DNA of 30,667 bases, from the NCBI GenBank assembly GCA_964486395.1, contig CAZALP010000001.1:1-30667 (forward strand). Reading direction: 5' to 3'. Shown in pieces: positions 7,050 to 30,667 of this stretch. The DNA comes from an uncultured Candidatus Saccharibacteria bacterium. Lineage in GTDB: Bacteria > Patescibacteriota > Minisyncoccia > Minisyncoccales > MHMH01. The notes beneath the pieces are model-generated. The model was not told the DNA's origin and did not search any database. It saw nothing but the letters and a program-made list of their open reading frames with translations. Each line of letters starts with the position of its first letter. The first letter of the stretch is position 1. Position numbers and translations under genes: made by a program.

Positions 7050-8501
7050 ATGACAAAGAAAAAGTTTTATATCTCAACTAGTATAGCTTATACTAATGCT
7101 CCTCCGCATATAGGTTATGCATTAGAGATAATCCAGGCAGATGTGATAGCTAGATATCGGCGGCTTTTGGGCGAAGATGTTTTCTTTTTGACCGGAACTG
7201 ATGAGCATGGGAGAAAGGTGGTAGAAGCAGCTAAAGAGGCAGGGAAAAGCCCTAAAGATTTTACGGACTTGCTTGCAAAAAAATTCAAAAAATTGACCGA
7301 AACTTTAAATATCTCTAATGACGATTTTATTCGCACTACCGATCAAATAAAACATTGGCCATCAGTAAGGAAAGTTTGGTTGGCATTAAGGGAAAACGGC
7401 GATATTTACAAGAAGAAATACAAGGGGTTTTATTGTGTCGGTTGCGAGGCATTTATTACAAAAAAGGATTTGGAAAGCGGTAAATGCAGAATTCACCAAA
7501 AAGAACCTGAAATAGTTGAAGAAGAAAATTATTTTTTCCGGCTTTCCAAATATTCAAAAAAGATAGAAGAGGTTATCAAAAAAGACAAAATTAGAATTAT
7601 TCCCGAGAGCCGAAAGAATGAGATGTTGAGTTTTCTCAGGCAAGGCTTGGAAGACATTAGTTTTTCTCGGCCTAGAAAAGACTTAAAGTGGGGGATACCA
7701 GTACCGGATGATAAAAGTCAGACGATATATGTCTGGGGAGACGCTTTAACCAATTATATTTCAGCTCTTGGTTATTCAAAAAATAGCAAAAAATTTAAAA
7801 AGTTTTGGCCAGCTGATGTTCATTGCATTGGCAAAGATATTCAAAAGTTCCATTGTTTGATTTGGCCGGGAATGTTGTTGTCTTTAGGTTTAGACTTGCC
7901 GAAAAATATTCTGGTTCACGGATTCATCACTGTTAATGGGCAGAAAATGTCAAAGAGCTTGGGGAATGTTATTGATCCTTTTGAATTGGTTGAGAAATAC
8001 GGAATGGATCCCGTGAGATATTTTCTCTTGCGGGAGATTCCGCCGACGGAAGATGGAGACTTTACGCGCGAAAAATTTGAGGGGCGCTATAATTCTGACT
8101 TGGCAAAAGGGCTCGGGAATTTGGTTGCCAGAGTAATAAAAATGGCGCAAATTTCTAATTTCCAATTTTTAATTTCCAATAAATTTTCAAAAACCCACTG
8201 TTCCCACACAGCCAAATTCAAAGCGGAAATAAACAAAACCTGGAAAGAATACCATCGTCTCTTTAACGAGTTTCGGTTTAATGAGGTATTAATGGCGGTT
8301 TGGGAATTGATCGGTTTTTGCGACAAATATATTGAGCAAAAGAAGCCGTGGGAAACCAAGGACAAGAAAGTTATCGGTGATTTATTGCTCGCCCTGAATC
8401 ATATTGCTGAAATGTTAAGGCCGTTTTTGCCGGAAACTTCGGAAAAAATATTGAAACAAATAAAAAATAAAAAAAGTCAGTCTTTATTTCCAAGGATTTA
8501 A
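7050..8501 (+). CDS. metG: Methionine--tRNA ligase (short form, no C-terminal tRNA-binding domain)
   Basis: YTNAPPHIGY (HIGH-like), FLTGTDEHG, knuckle CVGC...CRIH, WGIPVP, YVWGDAL and KMSKS. Confidence 0.97.
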   Translation: MTKKKFYISTSIAYTNAPPHIGYALEIIQADVIARYRRLLGEDVFFLTGTDEHGRKVVEAAKEAGKSPKDFTDLLAKKFKKLTETLNISNDDFIRTTDQIKHWPSVRKVWLALRENGDIYKKKYKGFYCVGCEAFITKKDLESGKCRIHQKEPEIVEEENYFFRLSKYSKKIEEVIKKDKIRIIPESRKNEMLSFLRQGLEDISFSRPRKDLKWGIPVPDDKSQTIYVWGDALTNYISALGYSKNSKKFKKFWPADVHCIGKDIQKFHCLIWPGMLLSLGLDLPKNILVHGFITVNGQKMSKSLGNVIDPFELVEKYGMDPVRYFLLREIPPTEDGDFTREKFEGRYNSDLAKGLGNLVARVIKMAQISNFQFLISNKFSKTHCSHTAKFKAEINKTWKEYHRLFNEFRFNEVLMAVWELIGFCDKYIEQKKPWETKDKKVIGDLLLALNHIAEMLRPFLPETSEKILKQIKNKKSQSLFPRI

Positions 8502-9409
8502 TGTTGATCGATACTCACGCGCATTTGAATTTTAGCGCTTTTAGGAACGATGTCGACGAAGTGATCCGCCGGTCTTTAGGTAATGAATTTTTTGCGAAAG
8601 CAAAAAATTACAGGAGTGGTCGGGAGAGTTGGGTATCCTCCCGCGATGGAAAACCAGCGAGCCGAAGGCGAGCGCCAGAAACCGAAGGCGTCTGGGGAGC
8701 AAAGCGGGAGCGGAACGACGTTTGGATGATTAATGTCGGCTCTCAATTGACTACCAGCAAAAGAGCTGTAAAAATCGCCGAGCAATACGAAAAAGGAGTT
8801 TATGCCGCTGTTGGCCTGCACCCCATTTATGCCCAAGAAAAATTTCAATATGAAAAGTTCAAGGAGCTGGCAAAATCAAAAAAAGTGGTAGCCATTGGAG
8901 AAATCGGCCTGGATTATGAGCCAGAATATGCCCCGTTCGCAGAAAAACAGAAGGAAGTTTTCCGTCAGCAAATGAATATGGCCATAGAATTGGACCTGCC
9001 CGTGATTTTTCACTGTCGCAAAGCGCACGATGATCTTATAGAAGTTTTGTTACAATGGAACAATAATTATACACCTGTAGATTTATTACACCGGGGAGTG
9101 GTTCATTGCTTTACCGGGAAATGGAGCCAGGCAGAAAAATTCTTAGGGATGGGGATGTATTTGGGTTTTAACGGGATAATATTTAAGCTGAATTTGGATG
9201 AAATTATCAAAAAAGTTCCTCTGGATAGAATTTTGATTGAAACCGATTGTCCTTTTTTGACCCCGCCTCAAAAAAGAGGTCGGAACGAGCCGGCCTATGT
9301 AAAATATGTGGCAGAGAAAATTGCTAAAATCAAGAATTTGGATTATAAAGAAATAGCCAAGATTACCACCCAAAATGCCAAAGAGCTGTTTAAAATTATG
9401 GAGAGATAG
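8501..9409 (+). CDS. tatD: TatD family metallo-hydrolase/DNase with an N-terminal insertion of about 44 aa
   Basis: DTHAH, GLHP, GEIGLD, FHCR, HCF, ETDCP and RNEP motifs are intact; extra segment at residues 29-72. Confidence 0.93.
   Translation: MLIDTHAHLNFSAFRNDVDEVIRRSLGNEFFAKAKNYRSGRESWVSSRDGKPASRRRAPETEGVWGAKRERNDVWMINVGSQLTTSKRAVKIAEQYEKGVYAAVGLHPIYAQEKFQYEKFKELAKSKKVVAIGEIGLDYEPEYAPFAEKQKEVFRQQMNMAIELDLPVIFHCRKAHDDLIEVLLQWNNNYTPVDLLHRGVVHCFTGKWSQAEKFLGMGMYLGFNGIIFKLNLDEIIKKVPLDRILIETDCPFLTPPQKRGRNEPAYVKYVAEKIAKIKNLDYKEIAKITTQNAKELFKIMER
8585..8716. mobile_element. In-frame 132-bp structured insertion in tatD (REP/MITE-like)
   Basis: 10-bp perfect stem with GAAA loop (8586-8609), CGGGAG/CTCCCG stem, CCAGA/TCTGG stem and CCGAAGGCG twice; the length is a multiple of 3. 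Boundaries are estimated from the TatD consensus. Confidence 0.6.
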
Positions 9410-9501: not shown

Positions 9502-10740
9502 ATGGACATTAAAAAAATCAAAAAAATCGATCCGAAAATAGCTGAATTAATCAAAAAAGAAGAAGAGCGCCAAAAAAACACTCTCAACCTGATAGCCTCC
9601 GAGAATTATCCTTCTCGGGCGGTCAAAGAAGCTTTGGGTTCTATTTTCGTTGCCAAATATGCTGAGGGGAGGCCGCATAAAAGATATTACGGAGGCATGG
9701 AAAACATCGACGAACTGGAAACTCTTGTGGAGAAAAGAGCGCTTAAGGCTTTTGGGTTGGATTCTAAAAAATGGGCCGTTAACGTACAGCCTCTTTCCGG
9801 AGCTCCGGCCAATTACGAAATATTAAGAGGCCTTCTGAATTTAAAAGATAAGATCCTTTCTCTCCATTTATCTCATGGCGGGCATTTGAGCCAGGGAGCA
9901 AAAGTTTCCCTGAGCGGCAGGGATTTCAAGCCTGTTTACTATTATTTGGGAAAAGACGGATTTTTGGACTATGAGGAAATTGAAAAAGTAGCCCAGAAAG
10001 AGAAACCGAAGCTTATCATTGTAGGCTACAGTGCTTATCCTCGCAAAGTCGATTTCAAGAGGTTTTCGCAGATTGCCAGAAAAGTTGGAGCTTACCTTTT
10101 GGCAGACACCTCGCACATTACCGGTCTTATCGTTGGCGGAGTTCACCCCAGCCCTTTTCCCTGGGTCGATATTTTGATGACCACTACTCATAAAACATTA
10201 AGGGGTCCCCGGGGGGCTATGATTATCTGTCGGAAGGAATTAGAGCAGAAGATTTTTCCCAAGGTTTTTCCGGGATTACAAGGCGGTCCCCATGAACATA
10301 CAATTTGCGCCATTGGCGTGGCTTTGAAGGAGGCGATGTCTCCGGCTTTCAGGAAATATGCCAAGCAGATTGTTAAGAATGCGAAAGTTTTATCCCAGGA
10401 GTTGGAAAAATACGGCTTTGATTTGGTTTCCGGCGGCACCGATAATCATTTGGTTTTGATTGACTTGAGGAATAAGAATATTACGGGGAAACCCTGCCAA
10501 GAATTACTGGAAAAAGCCGGGATAGTAACAAATAGGAACACCATACCTTATAACCCCGGGACTTCTTACGATCCTTCGGGAATTCGTTTGGGAACGCCGG
10601 CTTTAACTACCAGGGGGATGAAGGAAAAAGAGATGAGAATGGTTGCCGGCTGGATAAATGAAGTCCTCAGTAATCCCAAAAGCGTAAAGGAAATTAGGGG
10701 AAAAGTTAAAGCGCTCTGCAAGAAATTTCCGCTTCCTTAA
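9502..10740 (+). CDS. glyA: Serine hydroxymethyltransferase
   Basis: LIASEN, KYAEG, RYYGG, HGGHLS, PLP lysine motif TTTHKTLRGPRG, QGGP, SGIRLGTPA. Confidence 0.98.
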   Translation: MDIKKIKKIDPKIAELIKKEEERQKNTLNLIASENYPSRAVKEALGSIFVAKYAEGRPHKRYYGGMENIDELETLVEKRALKAFGLDSKKWAVNVQPLSGAPANYEILRGLLNLKDKILSLHLSHGGHLSQGAKVSLSGRDFKPVYYYLGKDGFLDYEEIEKVAQKEKPKLIIVGYSAYPRKVDFKRFSQIARKVGAYLLADTSHITGLIVGGVHPSPFPWVDILMTTTHKTLRGPRGAMIICRKELEQKIFPKVFPGLQGGPHEHTICAIGVALKEAMSPAFRKYAKQIVKNAKVLSQELEKYGFDLVSGGTDNHLVLIDLRNKNITGKPCQELLEKAGIVTNRNTIPYNPGTSYDPSGIRLGTPALTTRGMKEKEMRMVAGWINEVLSNPKSVKEIRGKVKALCKKFPLP

Positions 10741-10762
10741 ATTAAACGCTCGGCGATAAGAT

Positions 10763-10907
10763 TCGGAATTAGTCGCACGAAAAACCGCAGTCGCTCGTCC
10801 AGCGCGCTCGCGCTGCTCGAACCTCGGGCTCGCTCTTCTGCCAGACACTTTGGCAGAAACCACGCCCGCTCGCCCTGCGGAACGTTTTTCTTAGCGACTG
10901 ATTCCGA
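10763..10907. ncRNA. GC-rich multi-branched structured element between glyA and folD (ncRNA or REP-like; function unknown)
   Basis: 14-bp closing stem (10763-10776/10894-10907), 7-bp GAAAAAC/GTTTTTC stem, CGCAG/CTGCG stem, two inner hairpins and five GCTCG motifs. Confidence 0.5.
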
Positions 10908-10918
10908 GTTCACTAATT

Positions 10919-11686
10919 ATGGCTATTATTTTGGACGGCAAAAAATTATCAGAAAAGATTTTAGAGGATCTTAGAAAGAAGATTAAAAAGAGCGGCAAAA
11001 AGTTAAAACTTGCCGCTGTTTTGGTTGGGGAAGATGAACGATCAAAGATTTTCCTTCGTCAGAAAGAAAAAGCCTGTAAAAAAGTCGGCGTTGACTTTAA
11101 GCTTTACCAGTTTTCCCAAGATATTGGCCAGGAAAAATTAGCCAAAGAAGTAAAGACGATAGGGCGTCACAAATTATGCCATGGCATAGTTATTCAGCTG
11201 CCTCTGCCAGAATATATTAATGCCAATGAAATTTTATCTTTAATTCCGCCGGAAAAAGACGTTGATGCGCTTTCTGGCAAAGCTCTTGTTTTGTCGCCGG
11301 TTTTGGAGGGTATTCTGGAATTACTGAAAGAATACAAAATAGAGCTTAAAGGTAAAAAAGTGGCAGTCGTCGGCAGAGGAAGACTGGTGGGGGAACCGGT
11401 TGCCACCTGGTTTTTAAAACAAGGAATTGAGGTTGTGGAAAATGTCGAGGAAGCTGACGTTATCATTTCCGGAGTTGGCAAGCCGGGATTTGTCATTAAC
11501 GGCAATATAATAAAAGAAGGGGCGGTGGTAATTGATGCCGCAGGGGATGTAGATTTTGATAGTGTGGAAAAAAAGGCGAGCTACATCACTCCCGTTTTCG
11601 GAGGCGTAGGCCCCATGACGGTCGCCATGGTTATTAAAAACCTTATCGTTTTAAACAAGGTTTACCCGGGTAGATTTATGGGTTAA
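10919..11686 (+). CDS. folD: Methylenetetrahydrofolate dehydrogenase/cyclohydrolase (streamlined)
   Basis: ILDGKKLS, QLPLP, EKDVD, VGRGRLVGEP, ADVIISGVG, VID and GGVGPMTVAM motifs. Confidence 0.93.
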   Translation: MAIILDGKKLSEKILEDLRKKIKKSGKKLKLAAVLVGEDERSKIFLRQKEKACKKVGVDFKLYQFSQDIGQEKLAKEVKTIGRHKLCHGIVIQLPLPEYINANEILSLIPPEKDVDALSGKALVLSPVLEGILELLKEYKIELKGKKVAVVGRGRLVGEPVATWFLKQGIEVVENVEEADVIISGVGKPGFVINGNIIKEGAVVIDAAGDVDFDSVEKKASYITPVFGGVGPMTVAMVIKNLIVLNKVYPGRFMG

Positions 11687-11691
11687 AATAA

Positions 11692-14190
<2,499 letters not shown>

Positions 14191-22634: not shown

Positions 22635-22644
22635 AATTTTAGGT

Positions 22645-22720
22645 TCCCCTCGTGTTGGAAATTATTCAAAACCTCGGGGAGTTGCCCGAAGGCCGCAAGA
22701 GGAATCCGTCTGCGGCGGAT
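22645..22720. repeat. GC-rich REP-like hairpin cluster between tsaD and the MFS gene
   Basis: TCCCC...GGGGA ends, a CCGAAGGC core and an ATCCGTC-tgc-GGCGGAT hairpin. Confidence 0.4.
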
Positions 22721-22730
22721 AAAAGAAGGT

Positions 22731-23981: not shown

Positions 23982-24450
23982 TTGGGCCGGACGATGGAAT
24001 TGGCTGGATGCTTTGGGTATTTTTTCGGCCAAATATTTAATTTTCATACTGGTAGCCCTAGTGATTTTCATTTTTTGGAGAAAACGAAAAGTTATCATCG
24101 GCACCTTTTTAGCGGCAGTTTTGGCCAAATTTGTGATTGTTGATTTGATTCGTTGGATTTGGCCCAAGGCCAGACCATTTGTTGAAAATAATGTTCATTT
24201 GCTTATCAATAAAATTAACCAATCGGCTTTTCCCTCGGGCCATGCCGCTTTTGCCTTCGCTTTATCGGCAGTTGTTTATTTTTATAATAAAAAGGCCGGC
24301 ATTTTATTTTTTGTTGCCAGCTTTTTGATTGCTGTTTCCCGAGTTTTTGTTGGCGTTCATTGGCCATCAGACATTGTGGCTGGAGCCGGAATCGGAATTT
24401 TTTCCGGCTGGCTGGTTATAAGGATTTTCAAAAAGAAAAACTCGAAATAA
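23950..24450 (+). CDS. PAP2 family phosphatase (undecaprenyl-pyrophosphate phosphatase-like)
   Basis: KARPF, FPSGHA and SRVFVGVHWPSD catalytic motifs. Confidence 0.92.
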   Translation: MDYLLFQKINSWAGRWNWLDALGIFSAKYLIFILVALVIFIFWRKRKVIIGTFLAAVLAKFVIVDLIRWIWPKARPFVENNVHLLINKINQSAFPSGHAAFAFALSAVVYFYNKKAGILFFVASFLIAVSRVFVGVHWPSDIVAGAGIGIFSGWLVIRIFKKKNSK

Positions 24451-24477
24451 CAACTATGGTCTTGATTTCGAGTTTTT
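24436..24477. repeat. 42-bp palindrome, copy 1 (terminator-like)
   Basis: 13-bp perfect arms AAAAACTCGAAAT/ATTTCGAGTTTTT overlapping the PAP2 stop codon; a second copy lies at 28618-28659. Confidence 0.85.
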
Positions 24478-24574: not shown

Positions 24575-24658
24575 TGCCGCGGGAGGGAGTTGAACCCTCA
24601 AGAGCATAAGCTCATACGATTTTGAGTCGTACGCGTATTCCAATTCCGCCACCGCGGC
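24575..24658 (-). tRNA. tRNA-Leu (anticodon CAA), CCA end not encoded
   Basis: Reverse complement folds: GCCGCGG/CCGCGGC acceptor stem, TACGA-CTCAAAA-TCGTA anticodon arm, GAGC-TTAT-GCTC variable arm, GAGGG-TTCAACT-CCCTC T arm, discriminator A followed by CAA. Confidence 0.96.
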
Positions 24659-28617: not shown

Positions 28618-28659
28618 AAAAACTCGAAATAACAACCATGGTTGCGATTTCGAGTTTTT
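28618..28659. repeat. 42-bp palindrome, copy 2 (probable topA terminator)
   Basis: Same 13-bp arms as 24436-24477, inner CAACCATGGTTG palindrome; begins in the topA stop codon and ends in a T tract on the minus strand. Confidence 0.85.
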
Positions 28660-30667
28660 ATTTTACGTAATGGCAGTTTTTGTTGGAGCAATGGGTGCCT
28701 TTTTTGGTTTCTACTAACAGAGAACCGCATTTAGGGCATTTTTCTCCAGTGGGCTTATCCCATAAGGCAAAGTCGCATTTGGGAAAACGGTTGCAGGCGT
28801 AAAAAATCTTTTTCTTTTTGGTTCTTTTTTCTACGAGTTCACCATCCTTGCATTTGGGGCATTTGATTCCCAATTTGTTTTCCGGCAGAGATTCCGTGTA
28901 TTGACATTGAGGAAATTTGGAGCAAGCATAGAACTTTCCGTATTTTCCCAAGCGAATCAGCAGGGGAGCCCCGCATTTGGGACATTTCTTTTTTGTCGGC
29001 TCTTCGGTGAATTCTTTTTTAGAAACTTCGGAGTATTTTTTCTTTAAGTTTTCAGCAAATGAGCCGTAAAAATCTTTGATGATTTTTACCCACTTCTTTT
29101 CACCCTCGGCAATTTCATCTAAATCTTCCTCCATTGTGGCTGTAAATTTCAAATCAACGATATTGGGGAAGTGTTTCACCAGCAAGTCGTTGACCACGGT
29201 GCCAATTTCCGTGGGTCGGAAATATTTCTTTTCATCTTTTTCAATATAATTTCTTTCTTGGATAGTAGAAATAATAGGGGCATAAGTGGAAGGTCGGCCG
29301 ATGCCTTCTGCCTCCAGCTTTTTAATCAGGGTGGCTTCGGTATATCTCGGAGGCGGTTGGGTAAAATGCTGAGAAGGAGCAAGTTTTAATAATTTCAAAA
29401 TCTCGTTTTTGTCCAATGACGGAAGTTCTGCTTGCTCATATTTTATTGGATAAACTTTTAAGAAACCGTCGAATTTTAAGGTTTGACCGGTGGCTCGGAA
29501 AGTGTAGTTCTTAGCATTAATATCGACTCCAATAAAATCAAAAACAGCAGGCGCCATTTGACAAGCGATGAATCTTTGCCAAATCAGTTCATAAAGGCGG
29601 TACTGATTTTGGTCTAGCTTGGCTTCTCCTTTTATCTTCTCCGGAGTTCTGTCGGCGTATGTCGGACGAATGGCTTCGTGCGCTTCCTGGGCTCTGCCTT
29701 TGGCTTTGTATTTCCTGAATTGGTGGTAATTTTGGCCGTAGTTTTCGATAATGAATTTTTTAGCAGTCCCCAAAGCCAAACCGGAAAGATTGAGAGAGTC
29801 GGTCCTGTGATAAGTCGTTAGCCCCATTTCATAGAGTTGCTGGGCTGTTCGCATTGTAAATTTGGCCGGCCACCTTAATTTTCTCCAGGAATCCTGCTGT
29901 AAAGTTGAAGTGGTGAAGGGGGGAAATGGATTCTTCCGTGTTTCTTTCTTTTCCACTTCAGCTACTCGATATTCAGCTTCTTTTAAATCATTGACGATTT
30001 TTTCTGCTTCTTTTTTGTTTTTTATTTCCAGTTTATCTAAAATCTTGCCGCCTTTCTTGGTTAATGTTGCCTCAAAGGAAGGAGTTTTACCTGAGTTAAT
30101 TTTTTCCAGTAGAGCGGTAATGCTCCAATATTCTTGGGGAACGAATTTTTTTATTTCTCTTTCCCTTTCCACTACCAGTCTGACTGCTACCGACTGCACT
30201 CTTCCTGCCGACAGTCCCCTGGCCACTTTTTTCCACAAAAATGGGGAAAGCTTGTAGCCGACGATTCTGTCCAGTACTCTTCTGGCCTGCTGGGCGTCAA
30301 CCAACTTCATATCTATCTTTCTTGGATTTTGCAGGGCCTCTTCTATGGCTTGTTTGGTAATTTCGTGAAAGGCAATTCTTTGATATGGTTTTTGTCCGTT
30401 TAGGCCGAGAACTTGAGATAAATGCCAAGCAATGGCTTCTCCTTCTCTGTCTTCATCCGTAGCTAAAATAGTCAAATCTGCTCTTTGAGCGTTTTCAGCC
30501 AACAACTGAATTACCTTTTTTGATTTAAGAGGAATTACGTATTTAGGCTTGAAATCGTTTTCAATATCCACTCCCAGTTCGTCTTTAGGCAGATCCCTAA
30601 CATGCCCATAGCAAGAAAGGACCTGATAATTCGGCCCTAAAAATCTTTTTATGGTATTTCCCTTAGT
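28658..30667 (-). CDS. topA: DNA topoisomerase I (type IA) with C-terminal zinc ribbons, 5'-partial
   Basis: The frame is open to the window end (…YGHVRDLP…). TOPRIM ATDEDREGE, SAGRVQS, catalytic TYHRTDS, AHEAIRPT, GIGRPST and three C4 ribbons. Confidence 0.97.
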   Translation of the reverse strand, partial: TKGNTIKRFLGPNYQVLSCYGHVRDLPKDELGVDIENDFKPKYVIPLKSKKVIQLLAENAQRADLTILATDEDREGEAIAWHLSQVLGLNGQKPYQRIAFHEITKQAIEEALQNPRKIDMKLVDAQQARRVLDRIVGYKLSPFLWKKVARGLSAGRVQSVAVRLVVEREREIKKFVPQEYWSITALLEKINSGKTPSFEATLTKKGGKILDKLEIKNKKEAEKIVNDLKEAEYRVAEVEKKETRKNPFPPFTTSTLQQDSWRKLRWPAKFTMRTAQQLYEMGLTTYHRTDSLNLSGLALGTAKKFIIENYGQNYHQFRKYKAKGRAQEAHEAIRPTYADRTPEKIKGEAKLDQNQYRLYELIWQRFIACQMAPAVFDFIGVDINAKNYTFRATGQTLKFDGFLKVYPIKYEQAELPSLDKNEILKLLKLAPSQHFTQPPPRYTEATLIKKLEAEGIGRPSTYAPIISTIQERNYIEKDEKKYFRPTEIGTVVNDLLVKHFPNIVDLKFTATMEEDLDEIAEGEKKWVKIIKDFYGSFAENLKKKYSEVSKKEFTEEPTKKKCPKCGAPLLIRLGKYGKFYACSKFPQCQYTESLPENKLGIKCPKCKDGELVEKRTKKKKIFYACNRFPKCDFALWDKPTGEKCPKCGSLLVETKKGTHCSNKNCHYVK

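Follow-up and report, generated by a model that had tools for sequence, protein, structure and literature searches.

A structured intercistronic element with a conserved fold and an insertion-like distribution at the glyA-folD junction of an uncultured Patescibacteria-like bacterium

The 178-nt spacer between glyA and folD (10741-10918) on contig CAZALP010000001.1 of an uncultured Candidatus Saccharibacteria bacterium contains a structured element of 151 nt (element A, 10760-10910) with 17-bp complementary termini, and short flanks fill the rest of the spacer. The stretch analyzed is 30,667 nt in length and is referred to as the window. The fold of the element is conserved and the structure is real. 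In an alignment of four variants from three independent contexts, 95.4% of cells are paired compared with 35-42% when the partners are slid by one to three columns, and 12 pair changes affect both sides compared with two or three after sliding; shuffling the columns never gave values as high. The + strand has a minimum free energy of -76.5 kcal/mol, whereas 200 dinucleotide shuffles average -51.5 +/- 4.3 (z = -5.8, none of the 200 as good), and the - strand folds with a z-score of -4.1. A first reading made from the sequence alone had proposed a conserved structured nucleic acid at this position, and the covariation bears this out. The interpretation favoured here, at a probability of roughly 45%, is an accessory insertion-type structured element that is co-transcribed with glyA and folD and whose fold is selected, with a stable intercistronic helix that probably acts as a target for RNase III or a barrier to 3'-exonucleases.

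The helix closing the element (P1) is formed between 10760-10776 and 10894-10910 in the minimum-free-energy fold, and its 3' strand, placed by the fold and the variant alignment, stops 8 nt before the folD ATG. The sequence-only reading had described the inner 14 bp of this helix, TCGGAATTAGTCGC/GCGACTGATTCCGA (10763-10776/10894-10907), with a last paired base 11 nt before the ATG; the pairing extends to 17 bp. The next two helices of the same fold are P2 (GAAAAAC/GTTTTTC, 10779-10785/10884-10890) and P3 (CGCAG/CTGCG, 10786-10790/10875-10879), and the 17, 7 and 5 bp of P1, P2 and P3 make up a nearly perfect closing helix of 29 bp. Inside it, the junction strand Ja (TCGCTCGTC, 10791-10799) carries the second copy of the motif GCTCG and is followed by the predicted hairpin H1 (CAGCGC-GCTC-GCGCTG, 10800-10815), where the third copy lies across the loop and the 3' stem. 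The segment at 10816-10835 is composed of Jb (CTCGAACCT), the 5' strand of P4 (CGGGC) and Jc (TCGCTC), and contains copies four and five. P4 (CGGGC/GCCCG, 10825-10829/10864-10868) is a fifth helix that closes the second arm, which ends in the hairpin H2 (TTCTGCCAGA-CAC-TTTGGCAGAA, 10836-10858), the variable arm in the alignment of variants. The returning strand (10859-10893) consists of Jd, the 3' strand of P4 (GCCCG), Je (CTCGCC, with the sixth copy), the 3' strand of P3, a GAAC bulge, the 3' strand of P2 and TTA. The central region is highly asymmetric, with approximately 35 nt including a hairpin on one side and 6 nt on the other.

The 5' part of the spacer outside the closing helix (10741-10759) contains the first GCTCG copy and a mini hairpin of 3 bp (10747-10755). 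All of these features are on the + strand, as are the upstream gene glyA (9502-10740), encoding serine hydroxymethyltransferase (Pfam SHMT, E = 9.8e-151), and the downstream gene folD (10919-11686), encoding methylene-tetrahydrofolate (THF) dehydrogenase/cyclohydrolase (Pfam THF_DHG_CYH and THF_DHG_CYH_C). The element and an insert in tatD are the two longest GC-rich islands of the window, whose overall GC content is 41.6%. The GCTCG motif occurs at 10748, 10793, 10806, 10815, 10828 and 10868, six copies where 1.0 +/- 0.9 are expected from 5000 dinucleotide shuffles of the element, none of which reaches six. The stems and the six copies reported in the sequence-only reading were all recovered where it had placed them, in both the sequence and the fold.

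The variant set consists of the window copy and three homologues. The first homologue (L002) is encoded in the metagenome-assembled genome (MAG) CAYYJV01, labelled 'uncultured Candidatus Saccharibacteria', whose FolD is 82% identical to that of the window; the element is at the same glyA-folD junction and 165 of the 178 spacer positions are identical. The 5' spacer part at 10741-10759 differs from L002 at one of its 19 positions, and it is not common to the other two homologues. The second homologue (L013) was found by scanning metagenome contigs with a 22-mer from the core and is located on the groundwater contig Ga0066637, between genes for a class V fructose-1,6-bisphosphatase (FBPase) and a phosphofructokinase (PFK) and co-oriented with both. 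Its core is 86-88% identical to those of the window and L002, and a 29-nt block including the 10816-10835 region is identical in all three, while a wholly different sequence forms the distal closing helix (TTTAGACTGGTCG/CGACCAGTCTAAA). In L013 the stem of hairpin H2 is covaried and its loop contains an insertion of 130 nt (L013 368-494), which was trimmed for alignment; a manual structural alignment was also made. The third homologue (X3 variant, 'record 9') is a 255-nt contig from a hydrothermal-vent metagenome, from a comparison of the contigs of three runs with the window. It carries 12 substitutions in the core (10772-10895), its deletions take both pairing partners, H2 is changed to CTCGCC-CTC-GGCGAG, and the closing helix is a third, unrelated sequence (GGACGGTGTCTTGT/ACAAGACACCATCC).

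Covariation is concentrated in P1 and H2. In P1, nine to ten of the 17 pairs are compensatory across the four variants, and each of the three contexts keeps the length of 17 bp. Identity is 82-94% in the core, whereas in the distal 12 bp of P1 it is 17-38% when independent contexts are compared, no more than unrelated sequences would give, and these strands are still complementary. H2 exhibits three pairs changed on both sides along with paired deletions. P2 and P3 are nearly invariant, the sole changes being one-sided G-C to G-U replacements, and the five stem pairs of H1 are invariant. Since their sequences do not vary, P2, P3, P4 and H1 are neither supported nor contradicted by covariation. 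The loop and the sixth pair of H1 differ in L013 and the X3 variant, and the third GCTCG copy is therefore not conserved. Copy five is lost in the X3 variant and copy six is GTTCG in L002 and the X3 variant. Only the copies at 10793, within a TCGCTCG that is the same in all four variants, and at 10815 (copy four) are invariant, and the six copies are thus a trait of this copy of the element and not of the family.

Conservation relative to L002 exceeds that of silent sites. The spacer differs at 13 of 178 nt, 12 of these being transitions, where approximately 73 differences would be expected at the rate of four-fold degenerate sites (58.7% identity between the window and L002, n = 463; p = 1.6e-24 for the excess in the spacer). 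Eight of the substitutions are in stems; five keep the pair through a + strand G-U and three break two pairs. The comparison involves two sequences and cannot separate selection from a recombination tract. Third positions in the first 40 codons of folD (10919-11040) are 85-90% identical to L002 compared with 64% overall, and the identity of the spacer could come in part from a recombination tract of approximately 300-350 nt or from selection acting on the 5' coding region. This caveat does not touch the conservation of the core across three contexts.

Searches for further members and for known RNAs gave few hits. Two covariance models of the element (R1 and R2) were run against all of the 30-odd loci and detected it only in the window, L002 and L013; with filters off, the only additions were generic palindromes with equal scores on both strands. 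Two scans of viral contigs with 18-mers gave nothing or chance matches in high-GC genes, and a search of a protein database with concatenated six-frame translations of the core, aimed at spurious open reading frames (ORFs) on homologous elements, gave no match. The second match of the 22-mer metagenome scan (L014) was rejected as a chance match to high-GC coding sequence. The glyA-folD spacer of L017 has CTCGGGCTCGC in common with the element and a local alignment z-score of 2.3-4.4, yet neither model detects it, and it was set aside as a possible distant relative. In groundwater runs X4-X7, at least four further partial variants were identified with 30-nt flanks readable, and several co-existing variants in groundwater point to a wider family. 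In runs X4 and X5, a close relative also has the L013-type insertion in the H2 loop. Runs X4-X7 further contain a contig of 189 nt (399 nt in X7) that matches L013 290-327, a diverged 5' half of the element; its depth is 383x in X5 and approximately 177x in X4, and its flanks are rich in GCTCG (GACCGCGCTCGCGCTCGGCTTCGCTCGTCC). This contig could represent a multi-copy relative or a very abundant organism.

At gathering thresholds, Rfam 15 identified only a tRNA (24575-24658) in the whole window. The sequence-only reading had suggested an Rfam search of the element; at E <= 10 over 10600-11050, no family was found over it, with no riboswitch, ribozyme, 6S RNA, signal recognition particle (SRP) RNA or RNase P RNA, and none was found over the homologue in L013 200-650; apart from the tRNA, these searches gave chance matches only. 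The + strand of the spacer contains no sigma-70-like promoter and no intrinsic terminator. Several other candidate identities were rejected: a terminator, as there is no T-tract; a small ORF, as the open frames across the element are not conserved in L013; a tRNA-like, SRP or RNase P RNA, as no Rfam family matches; and a retron, omega RNA or bridge RNA, as the scanned ORFs do not include a reverse transcriptase, TnpB/IscB or IS110 recombinase.

The distribution of the element resembles that of an insertion. Relatives of the window genome were identified through FolD, and the glyA-folD junction looks like an insertion hot spot whose occupant differs in nearly every related lineage. It is without the element in L019, where glyA and folD overlap, and in L020, where the spacer is 1 nt; the DNA missing from these empty junctions includes 10741-10759. 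A DNA methyltransferase gene is present in L023-L026, with a small ORF beside it in the L023 junction (1717-2714), and another small ORF is present in the L027 junction (278-748). Unrelated structured palindromes fill the junction in L017 (9865-10000), L018 (9873-10000) and L028 (454-541). The FBPase-PFK junction is likewise empty, at 14-15 nt, in L029, whose PFK is 86% identical to that of L013, and in L032. Filled and empty sites thus occur among related genomes at both loci.

A second family of repeats (family B) is represented in the window by the insert in tatD. The tatD ORF (8501-9409) contains a 45-residue in-frame GC-rich insert at approximately 8582-8716 that is absent from L002, L017 and L018, is present in L019 with 92% nucleotide identity over 121 nt, and is homologous to the glyA-folD spacer of L018. 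Run X1 contains the window organism, and in it the core of the tatD insert has a depth of 51-54 against a baseline of 12-17 and occurs on contigs with several different flanks; the three- to fourfold depth and the varied flanks indicate that family B is a dispersed multi-copy repeat. The window at 22635-22661 is homologous to part of the L018 glyA-folD element.

Elements A and B are nested in one another. The X3 copy of element A is flanked 5' by AAAACAGCGAGCCAA and 3' by AAAGGCGAGCG, and in the L019 tatD insert these two sequences are adjacent and overlap by two A's, so the X3 element interrupts a copy of family B, within the loop of that repeat's predicted mini hairpin (GCC-AAA-GGC). Conversely, the insert in the H2 loop of L013 has in common with family B TTTTTTGCG(A)AAGCAAAA, an AGCG.GC module and GGTGTCTG, in the same order, and the similarity is in the same orientation only (z = 4.2-4.6). 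Both nesting events are in apical hairpin loops.

Some further observations concern family B and small repeats in the same genomes. L019 shares the tatD insert though it is the more distant genome by FolD. The spacer at 22635-22730, at a tsaD/MFS transporter gene junction, opens with AATTTTAGGTTCCCCTCGTGTTGGAAA; over 27 nt this sequence has 89% identity to the 5' end of the L018 element, and the spacer thus counts as the window's second fragment of family B type. In metG (8190-8207), the 18-nt module CCACTGTTCCCACACAGC makes up an in-frame mini-insert (KTHCSH) that is specific to the window. The module is reversed in leuS (12392-12433, LGVNSGH), KTHCSHTAKF is found at the same position in the LeuS of L018, and the module is also present in the L018 glyA-folD spacer (L018 9917-9934). 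Aminoacyl-tRNA synthetase genes thus seem to receive tiny repeat modules in frame and in both orientations.

Under the favoured interpretation, 10760-10910 and its flanks would be one copy of a sparse family (family A) of structured insertion-type elements of approximately 150 nt in candidate-phyla-radiation (CPR; Patescibacteria-like) genomes. The copy would have been gained at the glyA-folD junction in the common ancestor of the window genome and MAG CAYYJV01. Because it shares the strand of glyA and folD and lacks its own promoter and terminator, it is most likely transcribed within the glyA-folD message; it is also co-oriented with the flanking genes in both contexts with known genes. In the message, a 29-bp closing helix would carry a pyrimidine-rich junction core and two arms, H1 and P4 with H2. 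Evolution appears to keep the sequence of the core and the pairing and length of P1 and H2, and not the link to folate genes. By analogy to the ERIC, Correia and REP elements, the long helix is probably an intercistronic processing or stability stem, and a stem of this stability would be a plausible substrate for RNase III or barrier to 3'-exonucleases, with expression of glyA and folD possibly uncoupled or modulated as a by-product. Transcription, selection on RNA rather than on single-stranded DNA, the RNase III or stability effects and a mechanism of insertion are all presumed in this account.

Several observations weigh against this interpretation. No clear target-site duplication was established: the repeats on either side of the whole spacer, TAAATTA and TAATTA, and those beside the X3 copy, AA or AAGG, are short, AT-rich or ambiguous, and the L013 flanks are diverged. 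The element is single-copy, with one contig at flank depth in run X1 and no second copy found by R2 with filters off in the 30.7-kb window, whereas multiple copies are the rule in the classical MITE (miniature inverted-repeat transposable element), REP and ERIC families. Neither a transposase nor any other gene for mobilisation is in view. Conservation is lowest at the termini of the element, the reverse of inverted repeats recognised by a transposase. The strong identity to L002 is hard to explain by a purely selfish, decaying insertion, and a recombination tract could explain it instead. The preference for a + strand RNA is only weak, resting on 12 G-U pairs on the + strand compared with six A-C mismatches that would be G-U on the - strand. 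With MITEs, the element has in common a size below 500 bp, the lack of an ORF, terminal inverted repeats and filled and empty sites; it departs from them in the sequence of its termini and in copy number, as judged from the window and run X1.

A genuine accessory non-coding RNA of a new class is a possible but rather doubtful alternative. Such an RNA might be a self-cleaving ribozyme, a small RNA excised at P1, or a protein-binding RNA with its pyrimidine-rich GCUCG junctions as binding sites, and it would relocate occasionally by gene transfer or recombination. It ranks second owing to features that are atypical of MITEs, namely the single copy in the window genome, junctions that stay invariant while the periphery is free, and the high degree of conservation. 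Near-invariant junctions and inner helices combined with a P1 and H2 that vary yet remain paired are the pattern of functional RNAs and ribozymes, and the element is far more conserved relative to L002 than four-fold degenerate sites, although this local conservation may stem from a recombination tract. The enrichment of GCTCG beyond local composition and the co-existing groundwater variants also fit a functional RNA. However, only a few variants were found in seven CPR-rich metagenome runs, hence this is not a universal RNA, and no known Rfam ribozyme or small-RNA family matches. The invariant helices P2, P3, P4 and H1 lend it no covariation support, there is no promoter or terminator belonging to the element, and insertion elements typically show what is seen here, nesting in another repeat and unoccupied sites in close relatives.

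A combined reading, to which we assign little weight, is that family A is a new functional structured RNA class, either the cargo of a mobile element or such an element itself, with hairpin loops in Patescibacteria as its targets. Such an RNA might be self-cleaving or self-processing, or its GCUCG junctions might pair with the GCGAGC motifs of family B inserts in mRNA, such as that of tatD. Two perfect 8-bp matches between A and B are present in the window, 10827-10834 with 8655-8662 and 10867-10874 with 8666-8673.

It is improbable that element A belongs to the same mobile family as the tatD insert in the opposite orientation, which the sequence-only reading had offered as one of its two explanations. 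The motif on which this was based is real but short: the reverse complement CGAGC/GCGAGC is repeated in the tatD insert, the words GGCTCGCT and CGCTCGCC, and CCAGACAC only against L019, are found in reverse orientation, and CAGAAACC is common in the same orientation, but all are just GC-rich motifs of 7-8 nt. The best reverse-strand local alignment, to the L019 insert, has a z-score of 2.5-2.7, whereas alignment to the tatD insert of the window gives 0.2-0.9 on either strand, and R1 and R2 miss the tatD insert (8570-8740), the L018 spacer and 22635-22730. The nesting of A and B in one another counts in favour of this reading; against it, B is multi-copy with several flanks in run X1 and A is single-copy. 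The insertion-like character that the earlier proposal implied is retained in the presence, absence and nesting of the element, while the kinship is not, as homology is not detectable and the copy number differs.

Action at the level of DNA is still harder to credit. The element would then be a structure-specific recombination site resembling an integron attC, or an array of protein-binding GCTCG sites, selected as a hairpin in single-stranded DNA or as a cruciform. Being simple inverted repeats, the covarying helices would form in single-stranded DNA as well, the wobble bias between the strands is weak, and both nestings are in apical loops; in common with attC sites, the element lies between co-directional genes and has outer arms that are conserved in structure and not in sequence. 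However, GAAAAAC/GTTTTTC do not fit the attC core sites RYYYAAC/GTTRRRY, a highly conserved branched core is not a feature of attC, and the 30-kb window encodes no integrase and the flanking genes are housekeeping genes.

The weakest explanation, and a very improbable one, is a riboswitch or leader that senses folate or a one-carbon metabolite such as THF or 5-aminoimidazole-4-carboxamide ribonucleotide (ZMP) and controls folD: the highly structured and conserved core does lie directly downstream of glyA and upstream of folD and ends 8-11 nt before the ATG, but no THF-I, THF-II, ZTP or other Rfam model matches at E <= 10, the same junction lacks the element in eight related lineages, the L013 homologue is upstream of PFK at 41 nt and not 8 nt from the start codon, and the closing helix, 29 bp long and without a competing terminator or anti-terminator, does not suit a ligand switch. 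The resemblance to the THF and ZTP riboswitches is in its place beside glyA and folD, genes that such riboswitches often control; the element differs in its very long closing helix and in having no model match, no fixed location at folate or purine genes and no expression platform. The sequence-only reading had suggested a structured RNA regulating folate one-carbon genes, with gene context as the test, and this falls with an Rfam search lacking any match, a junction that is empty or otherwise filled in relatives, and homologues in unrelated contexts, at FBPase-PFK and within a repeat. This guards against a false annotation as a folate riboswitch.

Elsewhere in the window, two approximately 90% identical copies of a palindrome of 42-47 nt (AAAAACTCGAAATAACAAC...GATTTCGAGTTTTT) were found at 24431-24477 and 28618-28664. 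They are located in two spacers, after a PAP2 gene and between the relA/spoT and topA genes, and look like a shared bidirectional terminator-type hairpin.

CPR bacteria have tiny genomes, and here both tight operon junctions and housekeeping genes are colonised by small GC-rich structured insertions. Family A combines a conserved branched core with a closing helix that drifts freely in sequence while its length is kept at 17 bp. If the fold acts in RNA, it would constitute a new module for processing or stability, or else a new class of RNA, and in either case a well-defined motif from a phylum that is not yet genetically tractable. Literature searches aimed at structured or repeat elements in Patescibacteria gave nothing relevant, and those on 6S RNA and covarying noncoding RNA there gave nothing on this element.

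Among known systems, the ERIC/IRU and Correia (NEMIS) elements are co-transcribed intergenic palindromic repeats of enterobacteria and Neisseria. Element A resembles them in a size of approximately 100-150 bp, the lack of an ORF, a long terminal inverted repeat that folds into a long stem, placement in short spacers between co-directional genes, presence or absence among relatives and some internal insertions, as well as in the expected consequences, processing by RNase III or RNase E and a change in how stable the neighbouring cistrons are. In contrast, ERIC and Correia elements have conserved termini and tens to hundreds of copies per genome, whereas element A is single-copy with variable paired termini and a branched core. 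The Rickettsia palindromic elements (RPE) are small palindromic insertions in a reduced genome that lie in frame in genes, as does the neighbouring family B in housekeeping genes (tatD, and the mini-modules in metG and leuS); element A is intergenic and single-copy and has no detectable homology to family B or to RPEs. Self-cleaving ribozymes such as hammerhead, twister and hatchet are likewise sporadic in unrelated intergenic contexts, with conserved junction nucleotides and variable peripheral helices that accept large insertions, but no Rfam ribozyme model matches element A and no cleavage site or pseudoknot was identified. The 6S RNA is loosely similar in its length of approximately 150 nt, single copy, long closing helix, open centre, terminal hairpin and possible co-transcription with a neighbour; element A differs in the lack of an Rfam match at E <= 10, its asymmetric centre, the few variants in CPR-rich metagenomes and the nesting of one copy in a repeat. 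The kind of element is known, a small palindromic intergenic insertion acting in the transcript, and its departures are the variable covarying termini, the conserved branched core and the single copy.

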